A stretch of 20,661 nucleotides of DNA from the IMG/VR virus record IMGVR_UViG_2872152978_000006, positions 1 through 20,661 of that record, one strand, 5' to 3'. The number at the start of each line of letters is the position of its first letter. Position 1 is the stretch's first letter. The position numbers and the translations under genes are program-made. Positions 2,623-17,888 of this stretch are shown here, piece after piece. The stretch comes from a virus (taxonomy: Duplodnaviria > Heunggongvirae > Uroviricota > Caudoviricetes). The notes under the pieces were generated by a model that saw only the letters and a list, made by a program, of their open reading frames with translations, had not been told where the DNA came from and did no database searches.

Positions 2623-2964
2623 TGAATAAGAAAAACCGCCCATTACAGGCGGCTAATTCAGATATTCGCGTATCTGATGTTACGCCCCTTACAAAATCCC
2701 TTCAAGCACCAAAGCGCACACCGAAAAAGCATCGTGCCAGAGTCTATATGCTGCGTACTGGTATAGAGGGATGGACAGAAAATGACATTCTTCGCTACTG
2801 CCGTCTGTCTTCTGGTCGTAACTATGCAACAGAGTTAGAACGCCAGCTTGGAATCACTCTGGAACGTATCGACGAAAAGAATCCTGATGGTATCGGAACA
2901 CACCTTCGCTACCGTTTCTCCTGCCGTGGTGATGTTCTGAAAGTGATCACTCATGGATTTGCCC

Positions 2965-3870
2965 CTATATTTCCAGACATCTGTTATCACTTAACCCATT
3001 ACAAGCCCGCTGCCGCAGATATTCCCGTGGCGAGCGATAACCCAGCGCACTATGCGGATGCCATTCGTTATAATGCTCGAACGCCTCTGCAAGGTTCTTT
3101 GCTGCCGTTAACCCGTCTGGTTTGGGCATGATACTGATGTAGTCACGCTTTATCGTTTTCACGAAGCTCTCTGCTATTCCGTTACTCTCCGGACTCCGCA
3201 CCGCCGTGTTCTTCGGTTCAAGTCCCAACATCCGGGCGAACTGGCGTGTTTCATTAGCCCGGTAGCATGAACCATTATCCGTCAGCCACTCCACTGGAGA
3301 CGACGGAAGATCGTTGCCGAAGCGGCGTTCCACCGCTCCCAGCATGACGTCCTGTACTGTTTCACTGTTGAAGCCGCCGGTAGTCACCGCCCAGTGCAGT
3401 GCCTCACGATCACAGCAGTCCAGCGCGAACGTGACACGCAGTCTCTCTCCGTTATCACAGCAGAACTCGAACCCGTCAGAGCACCATCGCTGATTGCTTT
3501 CTTTCACGGCCACTCTGCCTGTATGTGCCCGTTTCGATGGTGGTACAGCAGGTTTTCGCTCAAGCAACAGCGCATTCTGGCGCATGATCCGGTAAACACG
3601 TTTGGCATTGATCGCAGGCATACCATCAAGTTCTGCCTGTCTGCGAAGCAGCGCCCATACCCGACGATAACCATACGTGGGCAGCTCTCCGATAACATGG
3701 TGTATACGGAGAAGCACATCCGTATCATCAGTGTGACGACTGCGGCGGCCATCCATCCAGTCATCGGTTCGTCTGAGAATGACGTGCAACTGCGCACGCG
3801 ACACCCGGAGACAACGGCTGACTAAGCTTACTCCCCATCCCCGGGCAATAAGGGCGCGTGCGCTATCCAC
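2965..3870 (-). CDS. insD: IS2 transposase OrfB (InsD)
   Basis: 301-aa ORF recognised as IS2 InsD (DDE integrase core, HSDRGSQY-type region). Confidence 0.9.
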
Positions 3871-4193
3871 TTTTTTGCCCGTCCATATTCAACGGCTTCT
3901 TTGAGGAGTTCATTTTCCATCGTTTTCTTGCCGAGCAGGCGCTGGAGTTCTTTAATCTGCTTCATGGCGGCAGCAAGTTCAGAGGCAGGAACAACCTGTT
4001 CTCCGGCGGCCACAGCAGTAAGACTTCCTTCCTGGTATTGCTTACGCCAGAGAAATAACTGGCTGGCTGCTACACCATGTTGCCGGGCAACGAGGGAGAC
4101 CGTCATCCCCGGTTCAAAGCTCTGCTGAACAATTGCGATCTTTTCCTGTGTGGTACGCCGTCTGCGTTTCTCCGGCCCTAAGACATCAATCAT
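3828..4193 (-). CDS. insC: IS2 OrfA (InsC), HTH protein
   Basis: Start placed at the internal Met of the 136-aa ORF ([25 protein letters not shown]...), giving the 121-aa InsC; overlaps insD start as expected for a frameshift-fusion IS3-family element. Confidence 0.85.
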
Positions 4194-4401
4194 CTGTACT
4201 CCAATGACTAGTCTAAAAACTAGTATTAAGACTATCACTTATTTAAGTGATACTGGTTGTCTGGAGATTCAGGGGGCCAGTCTAACTCATATTAACCATC
4301 TTGCGAACATAAATGATCACAACGGACTTTCTCAGCAGGAAATTGCCGACATTCTGAAACTCTACCCGGACGCGTTTAACGCCGCTTAACGGAGACTGAA
4401 A

Positions 4402-5235
4402 ATGAACATCGAAAAAAGCAGATTAATTTCTGAGGCCGCCCCTCATCTGAACGCCTCTCTGAGCACAATTAACGGTAATGAATTTGCCGCAATTGTCCCG
4501 GTTATTCCTGGTCATATCGGTGGGCGTGAAACCAATATTGTTAGCGCAAAAGCGTTACACAAAGCGTTGGGCGTGGGAAAAGACTTCTCTACATGGATCA
4601 CTGATCGCATCTCTGAATATGACTTCACCATTGGGCACGATTACTCAGTCCATAAAACAATTTCCCCAAATTTGGGGAAAAGCCCGAATGGCGCGGCTTA
4701 CAGCAAGATTAAGCAGTCTGGCAGACCCGGCAAAGACTATCTGTTAAGTGTCGGAATGGCGAAAGAACTGGCAATGATCGAACGCAATGATCAGGGTCAC
4801 GCTATCCGCCGTTATTTCATCCAGTGCGAGGAAGAATTACAGCGTAGCGTGCCTGAAATCGCCGCACGCTATCGTCGCCAGCTAAAAGCCCGTATCAGTG
4901 CCGCAAACAACTTTAAGCCAATGTGCGATGCGCTGAATATGGCCCGTGCCGAGATGGGGAAAACGACGCAGCAACACCACTACACAAACGAGAGCAATAT
5001 GATTTCTCGTATCGTTCTTGGTGGGCTAACTGCTAAGCAGTGGGCGCGGATAAATGGCTATTCTGGCGAACCTCGCGACCATATGAACGCAGAACAGCTT
5101 GAGCACCTCTCATATCTCGAAAGCACCAATATCACGTTAATTGATATGGGCATGGAATATGAGCAGCGCAAAGGAGAACTCACCCGCCTGTCGCAACGCT
5201 GGCTCGCCAAGCGTCTGGAGGCGCTCAATGTCTAA
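4402..5235 (+). CDS. phage antirepressor-like protein (AntA/Bro-N-type N-terminal domain)
   Basis: 277-aa ORF; region SAKALHKALGVGKDFSTWITDRISEYDFTIGHDY and GMAKELAMIERNDQGHAIRRYFIQCEEEL resemble AntA/antirepressor domains. Family call from memory. Confidence 0.55.
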   Translation: MNIEKSRLISEAAPHLNASLSTINGNEFAAIVPVIPGHIGGRETNIVSAKALHKALGVGKDFSTWITDRISEYDFTIGHDYSVHKTISPNLGKSPNGAAYSKIKQSGRPGKDYLLSVGMAKELAMIERNDQGHAIRRYFIQCEEELQRSVPEIAARYRRQLKARISAANNFKPMCDALNMARAEMGKTTQQHHYTNESNMISRIVLGGLTAKQWARINGYSGEPRDHMNAEQLEHLSYLESTNITLIDMGMEYEQRKGELTRLSQRWLAKRLEALNV

Positions 5236-5407
5236 GCCAACAGGAACACCACAACCACAAAAACGCTACAAAGATGCCCACGGAGCACTCGTTACTGTCG
5301 AAAGCGTGTCTCACAACCGAGTGACGTTTTATCGCGACGGGTATCAATCGCCATGCGTACAACCGCTGGCGCGTTTCATGAAGGAGTTCGCGGAGGTTAA
5401 CCAATGA
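5228..5407 (+). CDS. small hypothetical protein (59 aa)
   Basis: ATG at 5228 overlaps the upstream stop (AATGTCTAA) and its stop overlaps the next start (ATGA): translational coupling. Confidence 0.4.
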   Translation: MSKPTGTPQPQKRYKDAHGALVTVESVSHNRVTFYRDGYQSPCVQPLARFMKEFAEVNQ

Positions 5408-6065
5408 TACCCGTCCAGAAGAAGACATTTTCACTGGCTGGCATGTCGCCAAAATCCAGAAATATGACGGCAAAGTCAGGCATTAATACAGCAGATACAA
5501 GCAAAGTTTATCATTTGCTGGTGGTCGGAACGGATGCCTTAACCATACCAGAAATCTCGGGCGATGATATTAGCATTGAGAAGGTCAGCGGCTGCGCCAG
5601 AAAATTTCTGGTCGTAGATGATGTCTTCAGCTCGTGTAGTGACTCCACAAAAACATTCGTCCACGCGCGTGACGTTAACGAAATGAGCGCGATGTACTGT
5701 GCTTCTGGTTCTTCCAATAGTGAGTTTTCGGAGTCCATAAAAAAGAGCTTGCCGTTATGCGGCAACACGGTTTATGGTTATAAGGCACCTCATAAAACGG
5801 GTGCCGGGATTGGCGTCCTGGTAAATCGAATGGCGACATATGACGCGCCGAGCGTCTTTTTTTATGTCGTAGGTCTGACTCACCCATTTTTTGGGCGTTG
5901 GTGTATAATCCAGCGCCTTTGTCAATCAATGGTGGCTCAGGCAGGGGCTTCTTCGGAAGCGCCGGTATCCATTCGAGCCGGTTACGCCAACCCTGTCTGG
6001 GCTACCACCAGCGAAATTGGCGTTTCCGGTGGTAGCGTTACATGCTATCGAATGGAGGCTGCCAC
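5404..6065 (+). CDS. hypothetical protein; 3' extent uncertain (the open frame continues to 6471 but overlaps better-supported small genes in other frames)
   Basis: Start is coupled to the upstream gene by ATGA overlap; 355 stop-free codons are unlikely by chance, but the protein has no recognisable features. Confidence 0.25.
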
Positions 6066-6260
6066 ATGCTGGCTACTACCCCTACCCAAAAACCGCAATT
6101 TATCTGGATTATCGCCGCAGTTCGCCGCGATTGCCCGACAATTACCGCCAAAATTCATCATATTGCTGCCGAGTCTGAACGCGATGCTCGCCGTTATCTG
6201 GTGCGCGATCACATCTGCTTTTTTGCTGGTCGTATCCGCATGGAGGTGGCACATGATTAA
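6066..6260 (+). CDS. Icd-like small protein (host cell division inhibitor family of P4-like elements)
   Basis: 64-aa ORF with GGAGG RBS 7 nt upstream; motif QFIWIIAAVRR...AAESERDARRYL...FAGRI resembles Icd-like proteins. From memory. Confidence 0.45.
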   Translation: MLATTPTQKPQFIWIIAAVRRDCPTITAKIHHIAAESERDARRYLVRDHICFFAGRIRMEVAHD

Positions 6261-6471
6261 AACCTACGATGTGCATATGGATCCCCTCGAACGCACAAGC
6301 CAGATCATCACACTGACAGAAGTGATTAACGACATTCTGGTGAGCAACTCTCCCTCACGAGACGAAAGACTGAAGGCGTTACTCGCGATATTGGATCTCG
6401 CCGTTCGTGACGTTCATTTCCTGCTGGAAGGTGGCGAAATGCCAGGAAAAACGGGGGCAACCAATGAATAA
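6253..6471 (+). CDS. small hypothetical protein (72 aa)
   Basis: ATG with GGAGG RBS; start overlaps the Icd-like stop; stop overlaps the next start. Confidence 0.4.
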   Translation: MIKTYDVHMDPLERTSQIITLTEVINDILVSNSPSRDERLKALLAILDLAVRDVHFLLEGGEMPGKTGATNE

Positions 6472-6658
6472 CTCAATTAATACCCCTCGCCTTACGTCCG
6501 CACTTCAATTAATCGAGCAAGCAGCGGCTGTCCTGGTTGCTGTCAGTCTTTCGGCTGAAGAAATGGACGCTACTGATGTCGTGGATGCGATTAAAGCGTG
6601 CTCATCTTTGGTTAACGATGCCCGTGCCGAGCTGGTAATTCTTGGGGGTGAAAAATGA
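6464..6658 (+). CDS. small hypothetical protein (64 aa)
   Basis: ATG at 6464 inside the longer track ORF 6407-6658; overlapping start/stop with neighbours. Confidence 0.4.
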   Translation: MNNSINTPRLTSALQLIEQAAAVLVAVSLSAEEMDATDVVDAIKACSSLVNDARAELVILGGEK

Positions 6659-6918
6659 ATATCAACTTAATTTATCGTCATCCGTGTGAGCTGGAAATTG
6701 AATCATTGCTGGGGCGTGAAGAGCCATATCCAGACACATTCACTCCCGCAGATTGCGCGACTGAACGGCTTACCAGAGCGCGCACAGGTCTGGTTCATGT
6801 GATGAATGAGATTGTTCCCTCGGTGGGAGGGGAACAGGCGACAGTAATCAATAGCTGGCTACAAAAAGTTACCTCCCTGATAGATATCGGTTTAATCGAT
6901 GTGGAGAGTGCGAAATGA
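6655..6918 (+). CDS. small hypothetical protein (87 aa)
   Basis: ATGA overlap with upstream gene; part of the coupled small-gene chain. Confidence 0.45.
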   Translation: MNINLIYRHPCELEIESLLGREEPYPDTFTPADCATERLTRARTGLVHVMNEIVPSVGGEQATVINSWLQKVTSLIDIGLIDVESAK

Positions 6919-7070
6919 CCAACATCCAGCTCATTGAAGCGCAATGTCGCATCGAACAGGTTCAGACTGTTTTAGGGTTCTGGCTTGAAGGGGCCAGCCC
7001 CAGCAACAGAGACAAGTTAATGATTGGCGCGGTTATGTCACTGCTCAATGGCGTACCAGAAGCTATTTAG
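6915..7070 (+). CDS. small hypothetical protein (51 aa)
   Basis: ATGA overlap with upstream stop; below the ORF-track length cutoff; translated by eye as MTNIQLIEAQCRIEQVQTVLGFWLEGASPSNRDKLMIGAVMSLLNGVPEAI. Confidence 0.35.
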   Translation: MTNIQLIEAQCRIEQVQTVLGFWLEGASPSNRDKLMIGAVMSLLNGVPEAI

Positions 7071-7108
7071 GAAGCGGACGAATTGTTGGGCAAATATGAG
7101 TTACAGAA

Positions 7109-8427
<1,319 letters not shown>

Positions 8428-8947
8428 GAACCAGACGTTCGCTCCTACAGCACCAAATCAGGTCTGGGTGGCGGACCTGACGTATGTTGCCACACAGGAG
8501 GGATGGTTGTACCTCGCTGGCATCAAAGATGTTTATACGTGCGAAATTGTCGGCTACGCCATGGGAGAGCGCATGACAAAAGAGCTGACAGGTAAAGCCC
8601 TGTTTATGGCGCTCAGGAGCCAGCGCCCACCTGCCGGGCTAATCCACCACTCTGATCGAGGTTCACAGTACTGCGCATACGATTACCGGGTCATACAGGA
8701 GCAGTCTGGTCTGAAAACATCAATGTCGCGTAAAGGTAACTGTTACGACAACGCTCCGATGGAAAGCTTCTGGGGAACGCTGAAAAATGAGAGCCTGAGC
8801 CACTATCGTTTTAATAACCGGGATGAAGCCATCTCAGTAATACGGGAATACATTGAGATTTTCTACAATCGTCAGCGTCGTCACTCTCGTCTGGGGAATA
8901 TCTCCCCGGCAGCCTTCAGGGAAAAATATCATCAGATGGCTGCTTAA
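8428..8947 (+). pseudogene. C-terminal fragment of a different IS3-family transposase OrfB (IS600-like?)
   Basis: Open frame begins at the IS911 junction with no N-terminal portion; contains DDE-region motifs HSDRGSQY and SRKGNCYDNAPMESFWGTLKNE; precise IS identity not recognised. Confidence 0.75.
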
Positions 8948-8958
8948 AAAAAGAACAA

Positions 8959-9462
8959 ATGGTAGTGTCCGCTATTGCCAGTACACCTCACCGGGTGGCA
9001 TGGATAAACCCGGAAGAGAGTAAATCAAACCGCGCAATTGGCGTTGCGCTGAATGATACTGCATGTCGCGTATTGAAAAAACAAATCGGGAATCATCACC
9101 GTTGGGTATTTGTGTATAAGGAAAGCTGTACCAAACCAGACGGAACGAAAGCGCCAACAGTCAGGAAGATGCGGTATGACGCAAACACAGCCTGGAAAGC
9201 GGCGCTGAGACGAGCAGGTATTGATGATTTCAGATTTCACGACTTGAGACACACCTGGGCAAGTTGGCTGGTTCAAGCCGGAGTCCCGTTATCAGTGTTA
9301 CAGGAAATGGGAGGCTGGGAGTCTATCGAAATGGTTCGTCGATATGCTCACCTCGCACCTAATCACCTTACCGAACACGCACGGCAAATAGACTCGATTC
9401 TGAACCCATCGGTCCCAAATTTGTCCCAGTCAAGAAATAAGGAACGTACTAATGATGTGTAA
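8959..9462 (+). pseudogene. C-terminal fragment (about 155 aa) of a tyrosine integrase
   Basis: Contains the catalytic HxxR box ([11 protein letters not shown]) and Tyr region ([12 protein letters not shown]) but not the N-terminal domains or first catalytic Arg; begins right after the IS3-family remnant. Integrase homology starts near 8990. Confidence 0.7.
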
Positions 9463-9690
9463 CTTATTGATTTAAATGGGATAATAGGAACAATACACAT
9501 AGGCGATAAGCTTTGTTTTTGTTGCCTTTTTTATTGTTCATTTTTTATAGATACCCCCAAAAGTACCCCCATATCTTTTTCCGCCCCTGAAATTTGGTTG
9601 TTATTCATACACCATATCAGGCGGTAACGCTCTCCCTTTAACCCACTTATTGTATGATAGTGCTATCCCACAATAAGGAATCAGCCAGCC

Positions 9691-10050
9691 ATGAGAATGA
9701 CCAGTCGCAAAAAAGAGATACTTAGCTACTTTGAACCGGATAACCTCGAATGGGTGACTGGTGAGATTGGTGCGCCGCCGTTCGATGTGTCGGGTGTGGC
9801 CTACCTGCTTCATGGCATGGTGTCGTTCGATAAGCGTCACCAGCTCGAATCAACCCGGCGCACACTGGAAAGCATGGTTGCTGGTGGACTGCTTGAGCGG
9901 GTGACAGTGTATGAATCGCGCCAGATACGGCGCGGCGGTGATACTAACGCAACGGTCGTGCGCTACGGTTTACCCGGTCAGTGCGCTGTTATGCGCGATA
10001 CTGGCGGCGCTGACAACGCAATATCAGGTGAATACATGCGGGTCAGTTAA
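9691..10050 (+). CDS. hypothetical protein (119 aa)
   Basis: ATG with AAGGA RBS; no family recognised; 3' end overlaps the convergent gene by 8 bp. Confidence 0.45.
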   Translation: MRMTSRKKEILSYFEPDNLEWVTGEIGAPPFDVSGVAYLLHGMVSFDKRHQLESTRRTLESMVAGGLLERVTVYESRQIRRGGDTNATVVRYGLPGQCAVMRDTGGADNAISGEYMRVS

Positions 10051-10585
10051 TAGCCTGCAATCTGTCGTTGATGCGGCTCAGGTCGTAAACCCGGCGTTCA
10101 ATATCCAGCATCAGGAAATTGTGGATCTCGGCCTGCTCAGGATTATCAGACTCTCTGGCCTGTAATAGCAATTCATTGTAACCATGCAAGCCGCCTGAGT
10201 TTTCCGCCGGGGTGGTGCCTTTCCCACGCAGGCAGCTAATGGGCTGATTACTCGTATCGTGTGTTTTCTTCTCCAGCACAATGACGCAATCCCACCAGTC
10301 GCCAAAGTCATACGTGTAAACCAGCTTGTCACCCTCATTCTGGAGCGCCGCCCATAGTGGCGTGATTGCCGCGTTACCCATGCTTTCATCCTCACCCCAT
10401 ACGCGATACTCGCTACCTGGATCACCTTTACGCCCTTTCTCGAACATATACAGGTGTTCGTCATTCCAGCCAAAAGCTAACTGGATCACGGCATGAAGTT
10501 TACTAAAGGGGATTTGCTCTGGAACCAGCACACGCCGCCATATAGGTGGTTTGCTGTCTCGGATGGTTATCTTTAGCTGGTACAT
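10043..10585 (-). CDS. plasmid pRiA4b ORF3-like family protein (function unknown)
   Basis: 180-aa ORF; N-terminal YQLKITIRDSKPPIWRRVLVPEQIPFSKLHAVIQLAFGWNDEHLYMF matches the pRiA4b ORF-3 signature. Confidence 0.75.
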   Translation of the reverse strand: MYQLKITIRDSKPPIWRRVLVPEQIPFSKLHAVIQLAFGWNDEHLYMFEKGRKGDPGSEYRVWGEDESMGNAAITPLWAALQNEGDKLVYTYDFGDWWDCVIVLEKKTHDTSNQPISCLRGKGTTPAENSGGLHGYNELLLQARESDNPEQAEIHNFLMLDIERRVYDLSRINDRLQAIN

Positions 10586-10705
10586 GCAAATCCTGAATAA
10601 ATGCGAATCGGAAGGATAACGATACTGACGTACTCACAATTCTGTAAAGGTGAATAAAGGAAATTTGCTTAATACGCATAAGTTACATGTGGAATAATCC
10701 CATAT

Positions 10706-10891
10706 CTACCTGCGCGGCGCTGGCTTCTTCCACTGGTAGGCAGGTGCTCGCATCATTTCGCGGAACCTGTCGCGCCGGGCTATATCGGCATTAACTGATC
10801 GTTCTATCTCCCGTTGATCTGCCTGTGTAAGCTGGTGGCCTCCGTGCTCAAGTTTGGCGATGGTCAATAAGGCTATTTCGCGTGGTGTCAT
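10706..10891 (-). CDS. small hypothetical protein (61 aa)
   Basis: Good SD (AGAGGA) 8 nt upstream of the ATG on the minus strand; no family recognised. Confidence 0.4.
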   Translation of the reverse strand: MTPREIALLTIAKLEHGGHQLTQADQREIERSVNADIARRDRFREMMRAPAYQWKKPAPRR

Positions 10892-11162
10892 ACGTCATAT
10901 CCTCTGGAAGGATGAAACACGCCCGGATTAAATTTCATTTTTCGCGGGTATAAAAAAACGATGGGGCGGGCAGTCCCGGATAGTCAGGGCTGTAGAGATT
11001 TGACTACCCCCTCCCCACTGTATTCAGGTTACTGCTATTCCGTTAAGCGCTGCTTACGGGGATAGCTGCGTTGTGATTTTGACCATTCAGGTCGCCGCTA
11101 TTTCCTCACCGATTGGGTGCTACGCGCGCGCGTACTTGTCCCGAAATACCAGAAACCGCCAG

Positions 11163-11184
11163 CCAGAGGATGATTTCCCTCTGG
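11163..11184 (-). terminator. hairpin (CCAGAGG - 8 nt - CCTCTGG) just downstream of the minus-strand PerC gene
   Basis: 7-bp perfect stem 5 bp beyond the PerC stop; T-run is weak, so terminator function is tentative. Confidence 0.3.
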
Positions 11185-11188
11185 TGGT

Positions 11189-11470
11189 CTACCTTTGCCT
11201 CTTGCCGCCATTTAACCGGAAGGCGTTACCGTTCGGTTGCGCTATCCCCATGCGGTGTTGCGTTTCGGTAACAGCTTTATGCAGGTCGCCAAATTCCTCA
11301 ACCTTCACGGGCGGGCGCTTCACGTTCTCCAGACACGTTTCACGGCGGCGCTTTATCCATTCCCGATCATCGTCCTCGGAGCATAACAGCATGACTTCCA
11401 TCCATCGTGCGGCAGCTCTCCGGTATAGCCCTTTTGACTCCAGCTCTTCAGCTTTCCTGTCCCTTATCAT
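11189..11470 (-). CDS. PerC-family transcriptional regulator
   Basis: 93-aa ORF with ELESKGLYRRAAARWMEVM, characteristic of PerC/Pch-like prophage regulators; GAGG RBS. Confidence 0.7.
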   Translation of the reverse strand: MIRDRKAEELESKGLYRRAAARWMEVMLLCSEDDDREWIKRRRETCLENVKRPPVKVEEFGDLHKAVTETQHRMGIAQPNGNAFRLNGGKRQR

Positions 11471-11505
11471 TTCTGCCTCTCAGATTATATAGATAAGCAA
11501 AAAGG

Positions 11506-11620
11506 TGTTGGTTCAGTTGGTTTAATTTGTAAAGATCGTTGTTTTTATTATGTTTTTTTCTAAAATATTGAACCAACATCAACTCATTTTGAACCAACAC
11601 AGCCCAGCTCTGAACCAACA
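11506..11620. repeat. iteron array: TGAACCAACA direct repeats at 11569, 11590, 11611 (exact 21-bp phasing) plus one inverted copy at 11506-11515
   Basis: Read directly from sequence; sits in the divergent intergenic region between PerC (minus) and the RHH gene (plus). Confidence 0.7.
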
Positions 11621-11685
11621 ACACAGCGATAGCTTTGTGATTGGTCCGTTATTTTCTGGCTGATATTTGAGCGTATAACAGTGTT

Positions 11686-11704
11686 ATACAGTGGTATACT
11701 GTAT
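11686..11704. promoter_or_regulatory. 7-bp inverted repeat ATACAGT - 5 bp - ACTGTAT (candidate operator) about 30 bp upstream of the RHH gene start
   Basis: Arms at 11686-11692 and 11698-11704 are exact reverse complements. Confidence 0.35.
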
Positions 11705-11733
11705 GGATATTACTCACTGATATGGTCTTTGCA

Positions 11734-12177
11734 ATGAGCAAATCTAATCTGATCGCGTTCCGCATCCCATCTTAATTGCAGGATGAGTTTAATCGGTCTG
11801 TTCTCGCTTCTGGAGGGGATAAAACCTCCTGGCTTGTTGATGCGATTCGCATGAAGCTGGGACAGCCGGAAAAGTCTATTGATTCACGAATGCTTGGGCT
11901 GGTGGAGCGCATGGAAAAAGCCGCTGCGTCGCTTATTGCCGGAAAGCCGAACATCCCACCAAAGCCATATAACGAAACGGCAGTTATAAAGATCATTGCC
12001 GATACCATCCAACAGGGATTTGATAATGGGCGTGTGATAGCTGAACGGATCAATGAAGCAGGCTATCAAACAAAAGCTGGTAAAGCGTGGGATAAAGATA
12101 TTTACAGCGCGTGGAAGCGTCAGGGAAGCAATGCTGAAAATTTAAAAGCGGTGATTGATTGTAAGGTCAGCGTATAA
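11734..12177 (+). pseudogene. ribbon-helix-helix (Arc/MetJ/CopG-like) DNA-binding protein with an in-frame TAA after codon 13
   Basis: ATG 11734 encodes MSKSNLIAFRIPS, then TAA at 11773-11775, then the same frame continues LQDEFNRSVLASGGDKTSWLVDAIRMKLG..., the helix-turn-helix part of an RHH fold. The ORF track places a TTG restart at 11776. Confidence 0.5.
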
Positions 12178-12289
12178 ACATGAGTGCCCATTGGAAAGTA
12201 AGCGTACAGCCTGAACCGTCTGGTCAGAATCTGACGAATTAGACAAAGTGGTGTCCACCAAATAAGTAGTGGGAACCAAAGTGTCAGAT

Positions 12290-12670
12290 ATGCAGAAAAA
12301 TGTGAATCCCGGCAGGCGAAAAGGCTGCCCTAATTATCCTCCCGAATTTAAACAGCAGCTCGTTGCTGCCTCCTGTGAACCCGGGATATCCATCTCAAAA
12401 CTTGCTCTTGAAAATGGCATTAACGCCAATCTGTTGTTCAAATGGCGACAACAATGGCGCGAGGGAAAGCTGCTATTACCTTCTTCAGAGAGCCTCCAGC
12501 TACTTCCTGTGACTCTCGATGCAGCTGCCGAACAGCCAGAATCGCTCGCAGAGGATCCGGAAACCCTCAGTATCAGCTGTGAGGTAACGTTCCGGCACGG
12601 GACGCTCCGCTTCAATGGCAATGTCAGCGAAAAGCTCCTGACTCTGCTGATACAGGAACTGAAGCGATGA
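12290..12670 (+). CDS. IS66-family TnpA (orf1)
   Basis: Family-typical small HTH protein; ATG at 12290 preferred, alternative GTG at 12269 from the ORF track. Confidence 0.75.
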   Translation: MQKNVNPGRRKGCPNYPPEFKQQLVAASCEPGISISKLALENGINANLLFKWRQQWREGKLLLPSSESLQLLPVTLDAAAEQPESLAEDPETLSISCEVTFRHGTLRFNGNVSEKLLTLLIQELKR

Positions 12671-13014
12671 TCCCGTTACCTTCCGGGACCAAAATTTGGC
12701 TGGTTGCCGGTATCACCGATATGAGAAATGGCTTCAACGGCCTGGCGGCAAAGGTGCAGACGACGCTGAAAGACGATCCGATGTCAGGTCACGTTTTTAT
12801 CTTCCGTGGGCGTAATGGCAGTCAGGTAAAGCTCCTCTGGTCTACCGGCGATGGACTGTGTCTGCTGACCAAACGGCTGGAGCGCGGCCGCTTCGCCTGG
12901 CCGTCAGCCCGGGATGGCAAAGTGTTCCTCACACCGGCACAGCTGGCGATGCTCCTTGAAGGTATCGACTGGCGGCAGCCTAAAAGACTGCTTACGTCCC
13001 TGACTATGTTGTAA
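12667..13014 (+). CDS. IS66-family TnpB (orf2)
   Basis: 115-aa ORF coupled to tnpA by ATGA overlap; motif LVAGITDMRNGFNGLAAKV. Confidence 0.85.
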   Translation: MIPLPSGTKIWLVAGITDMRNGFNGLAAKVQTTLKDDPMSGHVFIFRGRNGSQVKLLWSTGDGLCLLTKRLERGRFAWPSARDGKVFLTPAQLAMLLEGIDWRQPKRLLTSLTML

Positions 13015-13062
13015 GCCTCTTTATCCTGGTCGACGCTGAATGAGCCTGGTAATATACCCGGT

Positions 13063-14601
13063 ATGAGCAGCTCACTTCCTGACGATATCAATGCACTGAA
13101 ACGTCTCCTTGCCGAACAGGAGGCGCTGAACCGTGCCCTGCTGGAAAAGCTGAACGAGCGTGAACGCGAAATAGACCATCTGCAGGCACAGCTGGATAAG
13201 CTGCGCCGGATGAACTTCGGCAGCCGCTCCGAAAAAGTCTCCCGTCGTATCGCACAGATGGAAGCTGACCTGAAGGCACTTCAGAAAGAAAGTGATACCC
13301 TTACCGGTCGGGTTGACGACCCGGCCGTGCAGCGCCCGCTGCGTCAAACCCGCACCCGCAAACCGTTCCCCGAATCACTCCCCCGCGATGAAAAACGGCT
13401 GCTGCCGGCAGCGTCATGCTGCCCGGAATGTGGAGGCTCACTGAGCTATCCGGGTGAGGATGCCGCCGAACAGCTGGAGTTGATGCGCAGCGTCTTCCGG
13501 GTTATCCGGACTGTACGTGAAAAGCATGCCTGTACTCAGTGCGATGCCATCGTGCAGGCCCCCGCGCCTTCACGGCCCATCGAGCGGGGTATCGCAGGAC
13601 CGGGGCTGCTGGCCCGCGTGCTGATCTCAAAGTATGCAGAGCACACCCCGCTGTACCGCCAGTCTGAAATGTACGGCCGCCAGGGCGTGGAGCTGAGTCG
13701 TTCACTGCTGTCGGGCTGGGTGGATGCATGCTGCCGGCTACTGTCACCGCTGGAAGAAGCGCTTCAGGACTATGTGCTGACTGACGGTAAGCTCCATGCT
13801 GATGACACGCCTGTCCCGGTGCTGTTGCCAGGCAATAAGAAAACGAAGACCGGGCGGTTATGGACCTACGTTCGTGACGACCGTAACGCCGGGTCAACGC
13901 TGGCGCCGGCGGTGTGGTTCGCTTACAGCCCGGACAGAAAAGGCATCCATCCGCAGACCCATCTTGCGGGGTTCAGTGGTGTACTGCAGGCGGATGCATA
14001 CGCCGGGTTCAACGAGCTGTACCGGGATGGCCGGATAACGGAAGCCGCCTGTTGGGCTCACGCCCGCCGTAAAATCCACGATGTGCACGTTCGCACCCCG
14101 TCAGCCCTGACGGAGGAAGCGCTGAAACGGATCGGCGAACTGTACGCCATCGAGGCAGAGATAAGGGGAATGACGGCGGAGCAGCGCCTTGCCGAACGTC
14201 AGTTGAAAACGAAACCGCTGCTGAAATCCCTGGAAAGCTGGCTGCGTGAAAAGATGAAAACCCTGTCGCGACACTCAGAACTGGCGAAAGCGTTCGCATA
14301 CGCCCTGAACCAGTGGCCGGCGCTGACGTACTATGCAGATGATGGCTGGGCTGAGGCGGACAATAACATCGCTGAAAATGCGTTGCGGATGGTCAGTCTG
14401 GGCCGCAAAAACTACCTGTTCTTCGGTTCGGATCATGGAGGAGAGCGGGGAGCGCTGCTGTACAGCCTGATCGGGACGTGCAAACTGAACGGAGTGGAGC
14501 CAGAAAGCTACCTCCGCTATGTCCTTGACGTCATAGCCGACTGGCCGATAAACCGGGTCGGCGAACTGCTCCCCTGGCGCGTAGCACTGCCGACTGAATA
14601 A
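13063..14601 (+). CDS. IS66-family transposase TnpC (orf3)
   Basis: 512-aa ORF with N-terminal leucine-zipper region, CxxC zinc-finger-like motifs (CCPECGG, CTQCD) and a DDE-type core. Confidence 0.9.
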
Positions 14602-14623
14602 CACATCCCCGTCAATACGGTTC

Positions 14624-15205
14624 TTGCTGCACGCTTACAAAAAAGCGGGTTTTCACCCGTCAGAATCTGGCGGGGATCCGTCAGTAAAATCAAAACATGA
14701 TCCGTCAGATAAAAAACCTTCTCGTCCGGACGCTTCGCAACCGGACACGCAGACGGCTGAACAGGATTTTTTAACTCGCCATCCTGATGCGGTTGTATTC
14801 AGCCCTAAAAAGCGCCAGTGGGGGACGCAGGATGATTTGACCTGCGCACAGTGGCTCTGGAAAAAAATCATCGCCCTGTACGAGCAGGCTGCCGAATGTG
14901 ACGGCGAGGTGGTTCGTCCCAAAGAACCGAACTGGACAGCCTGGGCAAACGAAATTCGCCTGATGTGTGTACAGGATGGCCGTACACACAAACAAATCTG
15001 CGAGATGTACAGCCGCGTCAGCCGCGATCCGTTCTGGTGCCGTAACGTGCTCAGCCCGTCGAAGTTGCGGGAAAAATGGGATGAGCTTTCCCTGCGCTTA
15101 TCGCCGTCCGTCAGCACGCACACAGAAAAACGTGAAGACCCGTACTTCAAAGCCAGTTACGACAACGTGGACTACAGCCAGATCCCGGCAGGATTCAGGG
15201 GGTGA
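14624..15205 (+). CDS. DnaT-like phage replication protein (primosomal DnaT C-terminal domain); 5' end abuts or is interrupted by the IS66 element
   Basis: C-terminus ...SYDNVDYSQIPAGFRG parallels the E. coli DnaT C-terminal end (...SQIPPGFRG, from memory); the ORF-track start is a TTG inside the IS terminal repeat, so the native start is probably lost or upstream of the insertion. Confidence 0.6.
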   Translation: MLHAYKKAGFHPSESGGDPSVKSKHDPSDKKPSRPDASQPDTQTAEQDFLTRHPDAVVFSPKKRQWGTQDDLTCAQWLWKKIIALYEQAAECDGEVVRPKEPNWTAWANEIRLMCVQDGRTHKQICEMYSRVSRDPFWCRNVLSPSKLREKWDELSLRLSPSVSTHTEKREDPYFKASYDNVDYSQIPAGFRG

Positions 15206-15207
15206 GC

Positions 15208-15696
15208 ATGAGTCTTTTGAATGACGTTCAGAAATTCATTGAAGCCCATCCGGGGTGTACTTCCGGAGACATTGCGGATGCTTTTGCAGGTTACTCACGG
15301 CAGCGCGTTCTGCAGTCTGCAAGCAAGTTACGTCAGAGTGGGCGTGTGGCTCACCGTTGTGAAGGAGATACACGCAGACATTTCCCGCGCCTGACTGAGA
15401 GAGCGCAGGAACCGGGACCACAATCAGTTCGAGAAACCAGACCTGTGCGCAATTTCTATGTCGGCACTAACGATCCCCGGGTGATTTTGTGCCTGACCCG
15501 CCAGGCTGAAGAACTGGAGTCCAGGGGCTTATACCGTCGTGCTGCAACGGTGTGGATGGCGGCATTCCGTGAAAGCCACTCCCAGCCAGAACGAAACAAT
15601 TTTCTGGCGCGTCGTGAGCGGTGCTTACGGAAAAGCAGCAAGCGCGCTGTATCGGGTGATGAGTGGTATCTGTCAGGGAATTACGTGGGGGCTTAA
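15208..15696 (+). CDS. PerC-family regulator with N-terminal winged-helix-like extension
   Basis: Contains AEELESRGLYRRAATVWMAAF, paralogous to the motif in 11189-11470; ATG 15208 preferred (GGGGG RBS) over the overlapping GTG at 15202. Confidence 0.65.
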   Translation: MSLLNDVQKFIEAHPGCTSGDIADAFAGYSRQRVLQSASKLRQSGRVAHRCEGDTRRHFPRLTERAQEPGPQSVRETRPVRNFYVGTNDPRVILCLTRQAEELESRGLYRRAATVWMAAFRESHSQPERNNFLARRERCLRKSSKRAVSGDEWYLSGNYVGA

Positions 15697-16349
15697 TGAG
15701 TAATAAATATTGCCAGGCGCTGGTGGAGTTGCGAAACAAACCAGCCCATGAACTGAAGGAAGTGGGCGATCAGTGGCGCACACCGGACAACATTTTCTGG
15801 GGAATTAACACCCTGTTTGGCCCGTTTGTTCTGGAGCTGTTTACTGACGGTGATAACGCCAAATGTGCCGCGTATTACACGGCGGAAGACAACGCGCTGG
15901 CGCATGACTGGTCAGAACGTCTTGCGGAGCTTAAAGGTGCTGCCTTTGGAAATCCTCCATACAGCCGCGCCAGTCAGCATGAGGGGCAATACATCACCGG
16001 CATGCGTTACATCATGAAACATGCCAGTGCCATGCGTGATAAGGGCGGGCGCTATGTTTTCCTGATCAAAGCTGCCACCAGCGAAGTGTGGTGGCCGGAA
16101 GATGCGGATCATATTGCTTTTATTCGCGGGCGTATTGGTTTTGAACTGCCTGCCTGGTTTATCCCGAAAGACGAGAAGCAGGTGCCAACCGGTGCTTTCT
16201 TCGCTGGTGCTATTGCCGTTTTCGACAAGACCTGGAAGGGACCGGCAATCAGCTACATCGGGCGCGATGAACTTGAGGCATGTGGTGAGGCCTTTCTGGC
16301 GCAAGTTCGCCAGCAGGCAGAAAAACTTGTCAGGGAGATGGCGGCATGA
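15696..16349 (+). CDS. phage DNA N6-adenine methyltransferase (Dam-like)
   Basis: ATG overlaps upstream stop (TAATG); catalytic NPPY motif (FGNPPYS) and overall similarity to phage Dam methylases. Confidence 0.75.
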   Translation: MSNKYCQALVELRNKPAHELKEVGDQWRTPDNIFWGINTLFGPFVLELFTDGDNAKCAAYYTAEDNALAHDWSERLAELKGAAFGNPPYSRASQHEGQYITGMRYIMKHASAMRDKGGRYVFLIKAATSEVWWPEDADHIAFIRGRIGFELPAWFIPKDEKQVPTGAFFAGAIAVFDKTWKGPAISYIGRDELEACGEAFLAQVRQQAEKLVREMAA

Positions 16350-16672
16350 CGACGTTAACTCAATGCCAGCAGCAGGTGCTGGATATGCTGATTTCTTACC
16401 AGAAAGAACGTGGCTTCCCGCCAACCAATCAGGAGGTGGCAACCATGCTGGGATACCGTTCAGTGAATGCAGCGGTGGAGCATCTTAGAGCACTGGAGAA
16501 AAAAGGCGTCATCACGATAAAGCGTGGTGTGGCCCGTGGTATCACTCTTCATACCGCGGTGAAGGACGACGACAGCGAGGCGGTCGGGATTATCCGCTCA
16601 CTGCTTGCCGGTGAGGAAAACGCAAGGCTGCGTGCAACTCACTGGTTACATGAGAGAGGCCTGAAAGTATGA
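16346..16672 (+). CDS. LexA-like N-terminal DNA-binding domain protein (no peptidase domain)
   Basis: ATGA coupling; LTQCQQQVLDMLISYQKERGFPPTNQEVATMLGYRSVNAAVEHLRALEKKGVI resembles the LexA winged-helix DNA-binding domain. Confidence 0.65.
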   Translation: MTTLTQCQQQVLDMLISYQKERGFPPTNQEVATMLGYRSVNAAVEHLRALEKKGVITIKRGVARGITLHTAVKDDDSEAVGIIRSLLAGEENARLRATHWLHERGLKV

Positions 16673-17058
16673 AGCTGATCCTGCCTTTCCCGCCCAGCGT
16701 GAACACCTACTGGCGACACCCCAACAAAGGGGCATTTGCTGGTAAGAGCCTGATAAGCGCGGCGGGGCGAAAATTTCAGAGCGCGGCGTGCGCAGCAATA
16801 GTTGAGCAGTTACGTCGTCTGCCAAAACCAACGTCGGCACCTGCTTCAGTGGAGATCGTGTTGTTTCCTCCGGATAACCGGATCCGCGATCTGGACAACT
16901 ATAACAAGGCGCTGTTTGACGCCCTGACCCACGCGGGTGTGTGGGAAGACGACAGACAGGTGAAAAGAATGCTGGTGGAGTGGGGACCGGTTATCCCGAA
17001 AGGGAAGGTCGAGATCACTATCAGTAAGTATGAGAAACCGGCGGGTGCAGCCGCCTGA
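16669..17058 (+). CDS. rusA: RusA-family Holliday junction resolvase
   Basis: 129-aa ORF; LPFPPSVNTYWRH...DLDNYNKALFDALTHAGVWEDD matches RusA endodeoxyribonuclease motifs including the catalytic Asp cluster. Confidence 0.85.
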   Translation: MKLILPFPPSVNTYWRHPNKGAFAGKSLISAAGRKFQSAACAAIVEQLRRLPKPTSAPASVEIVLFPPDNRIRDLDNYNKALFDALTHAGVWEDDRQVKRMLVEWGPVIPKGKVEITISKYEKPAGAAA

Positions 17059-17077
17059 TTAAGAGGAGAAACGAAGT

Positions 17078-17887
17078 ATGAATAATCTGATGGTTATTGA
17101 TGGTATTGAAGTTCGTCGTGATGCTTATGGGCGTTACAGCCTGAACGATCTGCACAGGGCAGCCGGGGGAGAACAAAAAAACCGCCCGAAATACTGGCTC
17201 TCCAATAAGCAAACCTGTGAATTGATTGAACAACTTTTCACCGAGGGTGGAATTCCGCCTCTGGAACAAAATCAACCAGTTAGCGTCATTAATGGCGGAA
17301 ATAACCAGGGGACGTATGTCTGCAAAGAACTGGTGTATGCCTATGCAATGTGGATCAGCCCGTCATTCCATCTGAAGGTGATCCGTACTTTCGATATGGT
17401 AACCAGCGCACCGGAAAAATTATCCGGGCAGGCTGCTGACAAGATGCAGGCTGGAGTGATTCTGCTGGACTTTATGCGCAGGGAGTTAAACCTGTCTAAC
17501 TCTTCAGTGCTTGGTGCCTGTCAGAAACTCCAGGAGGCTGTTGGCTTACCGAATCTGGCACCGCGCTATGCCATTGATGCTCCTGCTGACGCGCCTGATG
17601 GCTCAAGTCGCCCTACGCTGTCGCTGAGTGCACTGCTGAAACAGTATGGTATCCGCCTTACGGCTAATCAGGCATATCACCAGATGGCGAAGCTGGGGAT
17701 CGTTGAACAACGCGAACGATACAGCCGTACCTCGATTAACAACATCAAAAAATTCTGGTCGCTGACAGCGAAAGGCTGCATGTTCGGCAAGAACATCACC
17801 AGTCCCGCAAATCCGCGCGAGACGCAGCCGCATTTCTTCGAATCCCGATTCCCTGAGCTGTTAAAGCTGCTCGATACCGTTCATTGA
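17078..17887 (+). CDS. KilA-N domain protein
   Basis: AGGAG RBS; N-terminal MVIDGIEVRRDAYGRYSLNDLHRAAGGEQKNRPKYWLSNKQT typical of the KilA-N DNA-binding domain. Confidence 0.7.
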   Translation: MNNLMVIDGIEVRRDAYGRYSLNDLHRAAGGEQKNRPKYWLSNKQTCELIEQLFTEGGIPPLEQNQPVSVINGGNNQGTYVCKELVYAYAMWISPSFHLKVIRTFDMVTSAPEKLSGQAADKMQAGVILLDFMRRELNLSNSSVLGACQKLQEAVGLPNLAPRYAIDAPADAPDGSSRPTLSLSALLKQYGIRLTANQAYHQMAKLGIVEQRERYSRTSINNIKKFWSLTAKGCMFGKNITSPANPRETQPHFFESRFPELLKLLDTVH

Positions 17888-17888
17888 G

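Follow-up and report, generated by a model that had tools for sequence, protein, structure and literature searches.

The 20,661-nucleotide stretch of viral DNA analysed here (IMG/VR record IMGVR_UViG_2872152978_000006), referred to below as the window, carries an intact 2,441 bp copy of ISEc22, an insertion sequence of the IS66 family, at positions 12198 to 14638. It lies between an RHH-like gene (11734 to 12177) and the remnant of a phage replication initiator gene (14639 to 15205), and all features described are on the plus strand unless stated otherwise. An inverted-repeat search located the imperfect terminal inverted repeats of the element, IRL (12198 to 12219) and IRR (14617 to 14638), as arms of 22 nt that are 86% complementary (GTAAGCGTACAGCCTGAACCGT / ACGGTTCTTGCTGCACGCTTAC). 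Between them are three consecutive genes: tnpA (12290 to 12670), encoding 126 aa counted from the ATG with an HTH_Tnp_1 domain; tnpB (12667 to 13014), encoding a 115 aa Orf2-like protein with a TnpB_IS66 domain; and tnpC (13063 to 14601), encoding a 512 aa DDE transposase with a leucine zipper (LZ_Tnp_IS66), a zinc finger (zf-IS66) and the DDE_Tnp_IS66 and DDE_Tnp_IS66_C domains. The Pfam matches of the three products were all above the cut-offs (PF01527, PF05717, PF13007, PF13005, PF03050 and PF13817), and TnpC scored 465 bits against NF033517 (cut-off 180).

Elements of the IS66 family have imperfect terminal inverted repeats of about 20–30 bp that start with GTAAGCG. The window ISEc22 has GTAAGCG-type repeats and the same three-ORF domain content as the tnpA-tnpB-tnpC elements IS66, IS679 and ISEc8, and it shares 99.8% identity over positions 1 to 2441 with numerous copies from E. 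coli to which PGAP gives the name ISEc22. The ends, the ISEc22 identity and the domains of the three proteins thus bear out the family assignment made in the preliminary description of this DNA, and the limits of 12178 to 14660 given there for the element are corrected to 12198 and 14638. A simple scan of the right end of the IS found no outward promoter.

Judged from the sequences of two other ISEc22 copies, these ends can be taken as secure. In E. coli 503025, a copy with identical ends has AATCAACC duplicated on both sides, and a copy in the replication gene of two sister genomes (L007 and L011), also with identical ends, has AAAAAAGC on both sides, consistent with an 8-bp target duplication. 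Whereas simple insertions of ISEc22 carry such a duplication, the window copy has none under any plausible end mapping. The 8-mers that border it are ATTGGAAA on the left (12190 to 12197, site a) and AAAAAAGC on the right (14639 to 14646, site b). The left 8-mer ends a 20 bp spacer (12178 to 12197) that separates the stop codon of the RHH-like gene (TAA at 12175 to 12177) from the IS and includes an ATG at 12180. The length of this spacer and the difference between the flanking 8-mers had been noted before, and exact end mapping upheld both. A 14-mer near the left end of the IS (GTCAGAATCTGACG) resembles GTCAGAATCTGGCG just right of the element and was considered as a sign of end-like target choice; as 23 of 300 flank shuffles match equally well, the resemblance was treated as chance.

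In E. coli relatives without the IS (L001), the counterpart of the left flank is the right end of an island linked to thrW, and the match stops at 12197/12198. The island there includes genes for PerC, pRiA4b-ORF3 and hypothetical proteins, in that order, and continues past the IS site from CATTGGAAAG into CTGTTTGGGCC. The RHH-like gene at its right end encodes 147 aa in E. coli. In the window copy it is broken by a GAA to TAA nonsense change at codon 14 (11773 to 11775), and gene callers report a 133 aa ORF with a TTG start (11776 to 12177) in its place. No match to the product was found in Pfam, PHROG or NCBIfam. The counterpart of the ATG at 12180 opens an unannotated 26 aa ORF in L001, where the island is unrelated to the prophage or to the replication gene.

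The match of the right flank to a 313 aa gene of a lambdoid prophage (L002, CDS 8626–9567) starts with the first base of codon 126. In IS-free relatives, L002 and the Dam-carrying version of the same prophage in L035, a further 125 codons (MSTKLTGYVWDG...SKSG/KKAGFHPSE) precede the sequence found right of the IS, and the L035 product reads FDASKSG/KKAGFHPSESGG across this point. The full-length relative has an HTH_36 domain (Pfam) at residues 23–70, followed by a repetitive linker with a 15-nt tandem array of 4.3 copies and then by a C-terminal domain, and it matches positions 1–298 of phrog_391, "replication initiation O-like". The origin iterons of phage lambda lie within the O gene. The relative is like lambda O-type initiators in its N-terminal HTH, repetitive linker and C-terminal domain, the origin role of its repeats being putative, whereas the window retains only the C-terminal 188 codons, namely codons 126–313 and the stop.

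The window ORF has no HTH_36 match, lacks the 15-nt repeat array and aligns with phrog_391 over positions 119–298 of 298 only, so that it is a gene fragment and not a complete member of that family. As the right flank begins inside the 313 aa gene and the profile match is confined to positions 119–298, the ORF downstream of the IS is a remnant that has lost its 5' part. At E ≤ 0.01 this 188 aa remnant matched nothing in Pfam or NCBIfam. The label "DnaT-like" previously attached to it finds no support: neither Pfam nor NCBIfam detected a DnaT domain, which was absent from the full-length relative as well, and PHROGs assigns the protein to phrog_391. The longest ORF (14624 to 15205) does overlap the element, as had been described. 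It starts at a TTG within IRR and encodes a chimeric product of 193 aa, identical on 22 contigs of NCBI assemblies and named "Replication protein O / Phage O protein family" in public records from Shigella dysenteriae or S. boydii. This product is a chimeric remnant, probably devoid of function, and the ORF is best annotated as a pseudogene; beyond correct annotation the importance of the finding is slight.

The two flanks therefore map to different elements in IS-free E. coli relatives, in agreement with the earlier view that the window copy is not a simple insertion. When the joined flanks were searched against 5,426 complete E. coli genomes, each half gave thousands of matches and no match included both; neither window junction, RHH-IS or IS-repC, occurred in any of these genomes (0/5,426).

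Further genomes provided the two junctions in other combinations, the comparisons being limited to some 20 kb around the locus in each. CP026840.1 matches the window with 100% identity. The RHH-IS-repC pair of junctions recurs in at least six independent assemblies, on megabase-scale contigs with differing surroundings, and these include CP026807, CP026832, CP026825, PSST01000003 and UYIT01000003. Two other genomes, PSSQ01000001 (L007/L015/L025) and CP026828 (L011/L026), carry the arrangement repN-AAAAAAGC-ISEc22-AAAAAAGC-repC as a conventional insertion whose 8-bp duplication is perfect; repN there consists of 125 codons followed by KKA and a stop codon. Thus the AAAAAAGC right of the window IS appears to be the remaining right-hand half of the duplication made by the original insertion in the replication gene. 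PSSQ01000001 (L015) includes in addition a second ISEc22 copy, in the arrangement RHH-ATTGGAAA-ISEc22-CGATATCC, of which the left junction is that of the window. The CGATATCC flank sits in a yfdR-like HD-hydrolase gene of the prophage, is colinear with the native prophage in L035, and lies there 3.9 kb upstream of the site of the IS in the replication gene.

Among contigs longer than 1 Mb, just two are recorded with the exact repN protein, and CP026840 is not one of them; as an index look-up this is not proof of absence, and it is consistent with a net loss. Short contigs that end at the AAAAAAGC site were considered as further IS insertions and rejected, as the native sequence continues there; they are uninformative because a look-up by exact product selects such contigs.

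An IS911 copy on the minus strand (7179 to 8427), located at another rearrangement junction with AAC and GAA as flanks and no 3-bp duplication, provides the necessary link between the window and L015. A C-terminal fragment of the lambdoid prophage integrase (Phage_integrase; compare L002) followed by a partial thrW att core occupies 8959 to 9462, from which it follows that the block 8959–12197 is inverted relative to the replication gene. IS1, IS2, IS911 and an IS600 fragment are all found within the same 20 kb.

Block mapping showed that L015 and the window are composed of identical pieces in a changed order. The two IS911 copies of L015 are inverted with respect to each other. The halves of a 3-bp duplication (GGT) are divided between them, and both trace back to one native site, 6 bp upstream of the ATG of the replication gene. 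The split duplication indicates, therefore, that the ancestor had a simple IS911 insertion and that an inversion between IS911 copies followed in L015. Undoing this inversion in silico placed the two ISEc22 copies in direct orientation, and deletion between them removed 7,575 bp. These comprised 3,495 bp of the early region with cI and cro, the 1,249 bp IS911, a 390 bp stretch of repN plus leader, and one IS length of 2,441 bp. The simulated product aligned with window positions 4385–17160 as a single block of 12,778 bp with 99.66% identity. Hence L015 contains both parental junctions, on separate ISEc22 copies; the flanks are those of the two parents, and their recombination product is colinear with the window.

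Taken together, these observations make it probable that the window ISEc22 is a recombinant hybrid that marks the scar of a prophage deletion and arose by homologous recombination between two ISEc22 copies. In the history proposed, one ISEc22 would have inserted conventionally in a Shigella ancestor at codon 125/126 of the lambdoid O-like initiator gene, duplicating AAAAAAGC. About 3.5 kb upstream of it would have lain a second copy, oriented alike, with its left end 20 bp past the RHH-like gene at ATTGGAAA and its right end in the yfdR-like HD-hydrolase gene at CGATATCC. Homologous recombination between these direct repeats, presumably dependent on RecA, would then have excised the 7,575 bp, that is, what remained of the early-left region, cI, cro, ymfL, a gene for a 112 aa product, IS911, the 125 codons of repN and one length of the IS. 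A single hybrid IS would be left, with its left junction derived from the copy at site a and its right junction from the copy in the replication gene. Such a copy lacks a target duplication because each of its ends stems from a different insertion site. The direct-repeat intermediate was found in none of the genomes examined; it is reconstructed, and both this intermediate and the part played by host recombination are inferred from the comparison. The copies differ at too few positions for any SNP in the window IS to mark the crossover. Position 1573 of the IS is C in the window and T in the copies of the replication gene, which is suggestive only and would place the crossover to the right of 1573 or point to gene conversion.

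An event of the same type is on record for plasmid pAt15955 of Agrobacterium tumefaciens, where homologous recombination between IS66 copies deleted 270 kb and left one copy (PMC6778807). Likewise, in both cases direct IS66-family copies recombine, the interval is lost and the surviving copy has distinct flanking duplications. The pAt15955 deletion was observed experimentally and spans 270 kb, whereas the one proposed here concerns a Shigella prophage remnant, from which it would have removed 7.6 kb, is deduced from comparative genomics and is apparently recurrent.

The same end state could be attained in another order, with an inversion between ISEc22 copies first and a deletion between IS911 copies later. 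Starting from the inverted ISEc22 copies of an L015-like genome, the segment from RHH to repN would be inverted to give RHH-IS-repC together with the reciprocal junction, and the subsequent IS911 deletion would drop this junction along with cI, cro and repN. This path begins with an arrangement that is actually observed and, from the block map, yields algebraically the same product, but its starting point is itself derived by IS911 inversion, as the split GGT duplication attests, so that three events would be required from the common ancestor instead of one; moreover, the intermediate was seen in none of the genomes. For these reasons it is considered unlikely.

Intramolecular transposition is a known route by which an IS comes to lie between non-matching flanks. 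As tnpABC is intact in the window copy, the transposase of the copy next to the RHH-like gene might have attacked the replication gene in a replicative or one-ended event, producing an adjacent deletion without duplication. This event, however, would have had to strike the same nucleotide in the same orientation as the insertion that is duplicated at AAAAAAGC in the sister genomes, and those genomes share with the window the degraded locus and the IS1-gcl junction. The flank SNPs suggest, in addition, that the window lineage descends from a state with AAAAAAGC on both sides of the IS, and the transposase route is thus very unlikely.

Repeats of 2.4 kb can mislead assemblers, and two ISEc22 copies might have been collapsed with the joining of unrelated flanks; such an artefact is scarcely credible, given that the junction pair recurs in at least six separate assemblies, each time on contigs of megabase scale and in differing surroundings.

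The preliminary description had also raised the possibility that the gene after the IS natively starts at the ATG at 12180, in which case its product would read MSAHWK and continue with KKAGFHPSE after an IS that splits it at codon 6. A simple insertion of this kind, with its duplication lost or mis-mapped, can be practically dismissed: the ATG is indeed in frame with the sequence after the IS, but each side is joined to unrelated sequence in IS-free relatives, the flanks are adjacent in none of the 5,426 genomes, two other ISEc22 copies, both with duplications, confirm the mapped ends, and the PHROG profile match of the downstream ORF starts no earlier than position 119 of 298. As an observation that would tell against this start, unrelated sequence ahead of the gene in homologues had been named beforehand, and the IS-free relatives contain just that. 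With a chance of one in three that the ATG falls in frame, the in-frame MSAHWK is, on the sequences compared, a coincidence.

Returning to the deletion by recombination between direct ISEc22 copies, SNPs in the flanks suggest that it took place more than once. They define a clade in which all members are deleted (L005, L006, L010 and L012) and a mixed clade, with the deletion present in the window (L009) and L008 and absent from L007 and L011. Derived flank sites are common to L007 and L008. At position 1573 of the IS, L008 has T, like the copies in the replication gene, whereas the window and the all-deleted clade have C. Because a deletion is irreversible, the mixed pattern may tentatively be explained by at least two to three independent deletions with different crossover points, a count that relies on few informative sites.

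With its immunity region and the DNA-binding half of its initiator lost, the prophage is incapable of autonomous replication. It is most improbable that the recurrence reflects selection and not neutral decay, whether for loss of the immunity/replication module or for decoy expression of the O-like C-terminus. In the latter case, the orphan O-like domain, expressed from the end of the IS, would interfere with the replication of incoming related lambdoid phages.

The IS, the mechanism and the behaviour of the lineage are all known, and the kind of event is ordinary. IS-driven genome degradation in Shigella, with structural variation between strains and gene loss, was described by Hawkey et al. 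2020 (PMC7373316). The region of the window is likewise dense in IS, structurally variable between strains and affected by gene loss, although that study stresses five expanded IS types and ISEc22 is not among them. No description of this ISEc22/prophage locus was found in the literature searched. The locus represents a clean, reconstructable example of the stepwise and apparently recurrent IS-driven rearrangement of a prophage remnant in Shigella, and it could act as a structural marker for lineages.

On the left flank of ISEc22, an IS66-family element, the ATG at window 12180 (flank segment 12180-12197), which the preliminary description had considered as a possible native start of the DnaT-like gene, corresponds to the start of a putative, unannotated 26-aa ORF that is found in IS-free islands (MSAHWKAVWANTFIHQQVVTMGEDQA, at 9483-9563 in the E. 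coli thrW island L001). In L001, the stop codon of this ORF overlaps the start of the next gene (ATGA), and in the window the ORF is interrupted by ISEc22 after codon 6. The gene upstream, labelled RHH (11734-12177), carries a nonsense codon at 11773-11775, where codon 14 is changed from GAA to TAA with respect to the 147-aa E. coli version, such that an N-terminal segment resembling a beta-strand, SNLIAFRIPS, is severed from the 133-aa ORF reported by gene callers. This stop is common to the window, L007 (PSSQ01000001) and L008 (PSST01000003), and is absent from genomes of the L005 type, which belong to the clade whose members are all deleted. No family match to the product was found in Pfam, PHROG or NCBIfam.

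The intact replication gene of the IS-free E. coli lambdoid prophage L002 contains a tandem array of 4.3 copies of a 15-nt unit (8935-8998) that encodes SDxSK repeats, with remnants at window 14655-14720. The array is succeeded on the 3’ side by an A6 tract and by a small hairpin (CGGGTTTTCACCCG), and the insertion point of ISEc22 is 2 nt beyond the end of the array. The array looks like a set of candidate origin iterons within the initiator gene, a layout resembling that of lambda O, where the origin iterons are likewise inside the initiator gene. A subterminal 14-mer of ISEc22 (GTCAGAATCTGACG, window 12223-12236) is a near match to the repeat unit directly to the right of the IS (14659-14672); this likeness is probably due to chance, as an equally good match was obtained in 23 of 300 shuffles of the flank.

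The window holds further IS copies. IS911 (window 7179-8427) connects the left part of the island with an IS600 fragment (8428-8958) and a truncated lambdoid integrase, and its flanks (AAC and GAA) do not match, which makes it a second rearrangement junction. An inversion is indicated in L015, from the undeleted sister PSSQ01000001, where each of two IS911 copies holds half of a GGT duplication. IS2 (2954-4284), which disrupts a small island gene, is flanked by a 5-bp duplication (ACTCA), as a simple insertion that the otherwise colinear L016 lacks. Directly 3’ of the Q-antiterminator gene, an IS1 copy (19789-20556) links the prophage remnant to gcl-allR-allA-allS, in a region that extends past the window (L009, CP026840, 15181-20582). 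This junction was present in all sister assemblies. The late region of the prophage, together with a long chromosomal stretch between thrW and gcl, appears to be missing or to have moved.

About 90 of the approximately 100 differences between the window and the sister genomes are concentrated within roughly 1.5 kb (about 16640-18140) surrounding the KilA-N gene (269 aa versus 265 aa), a distribution suggesting a local recombinational replacement. In L012 (CP026825, 8441-9978), this ISEc22 copy measures 2,440 bp and its tnpC is broken into ORFs of 186 and 310 aa, through a frameshift or else an error in sequencing. By flank SNPs, L008 and L007 are each other's closest relatives, yet the former is deleted and the latter undeleted. 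L008 also carries, at ISEc22 position 1573, the allele of the copy in the replication gene. The comparison suggests that the ISEc22-linked deletion recurred independently.
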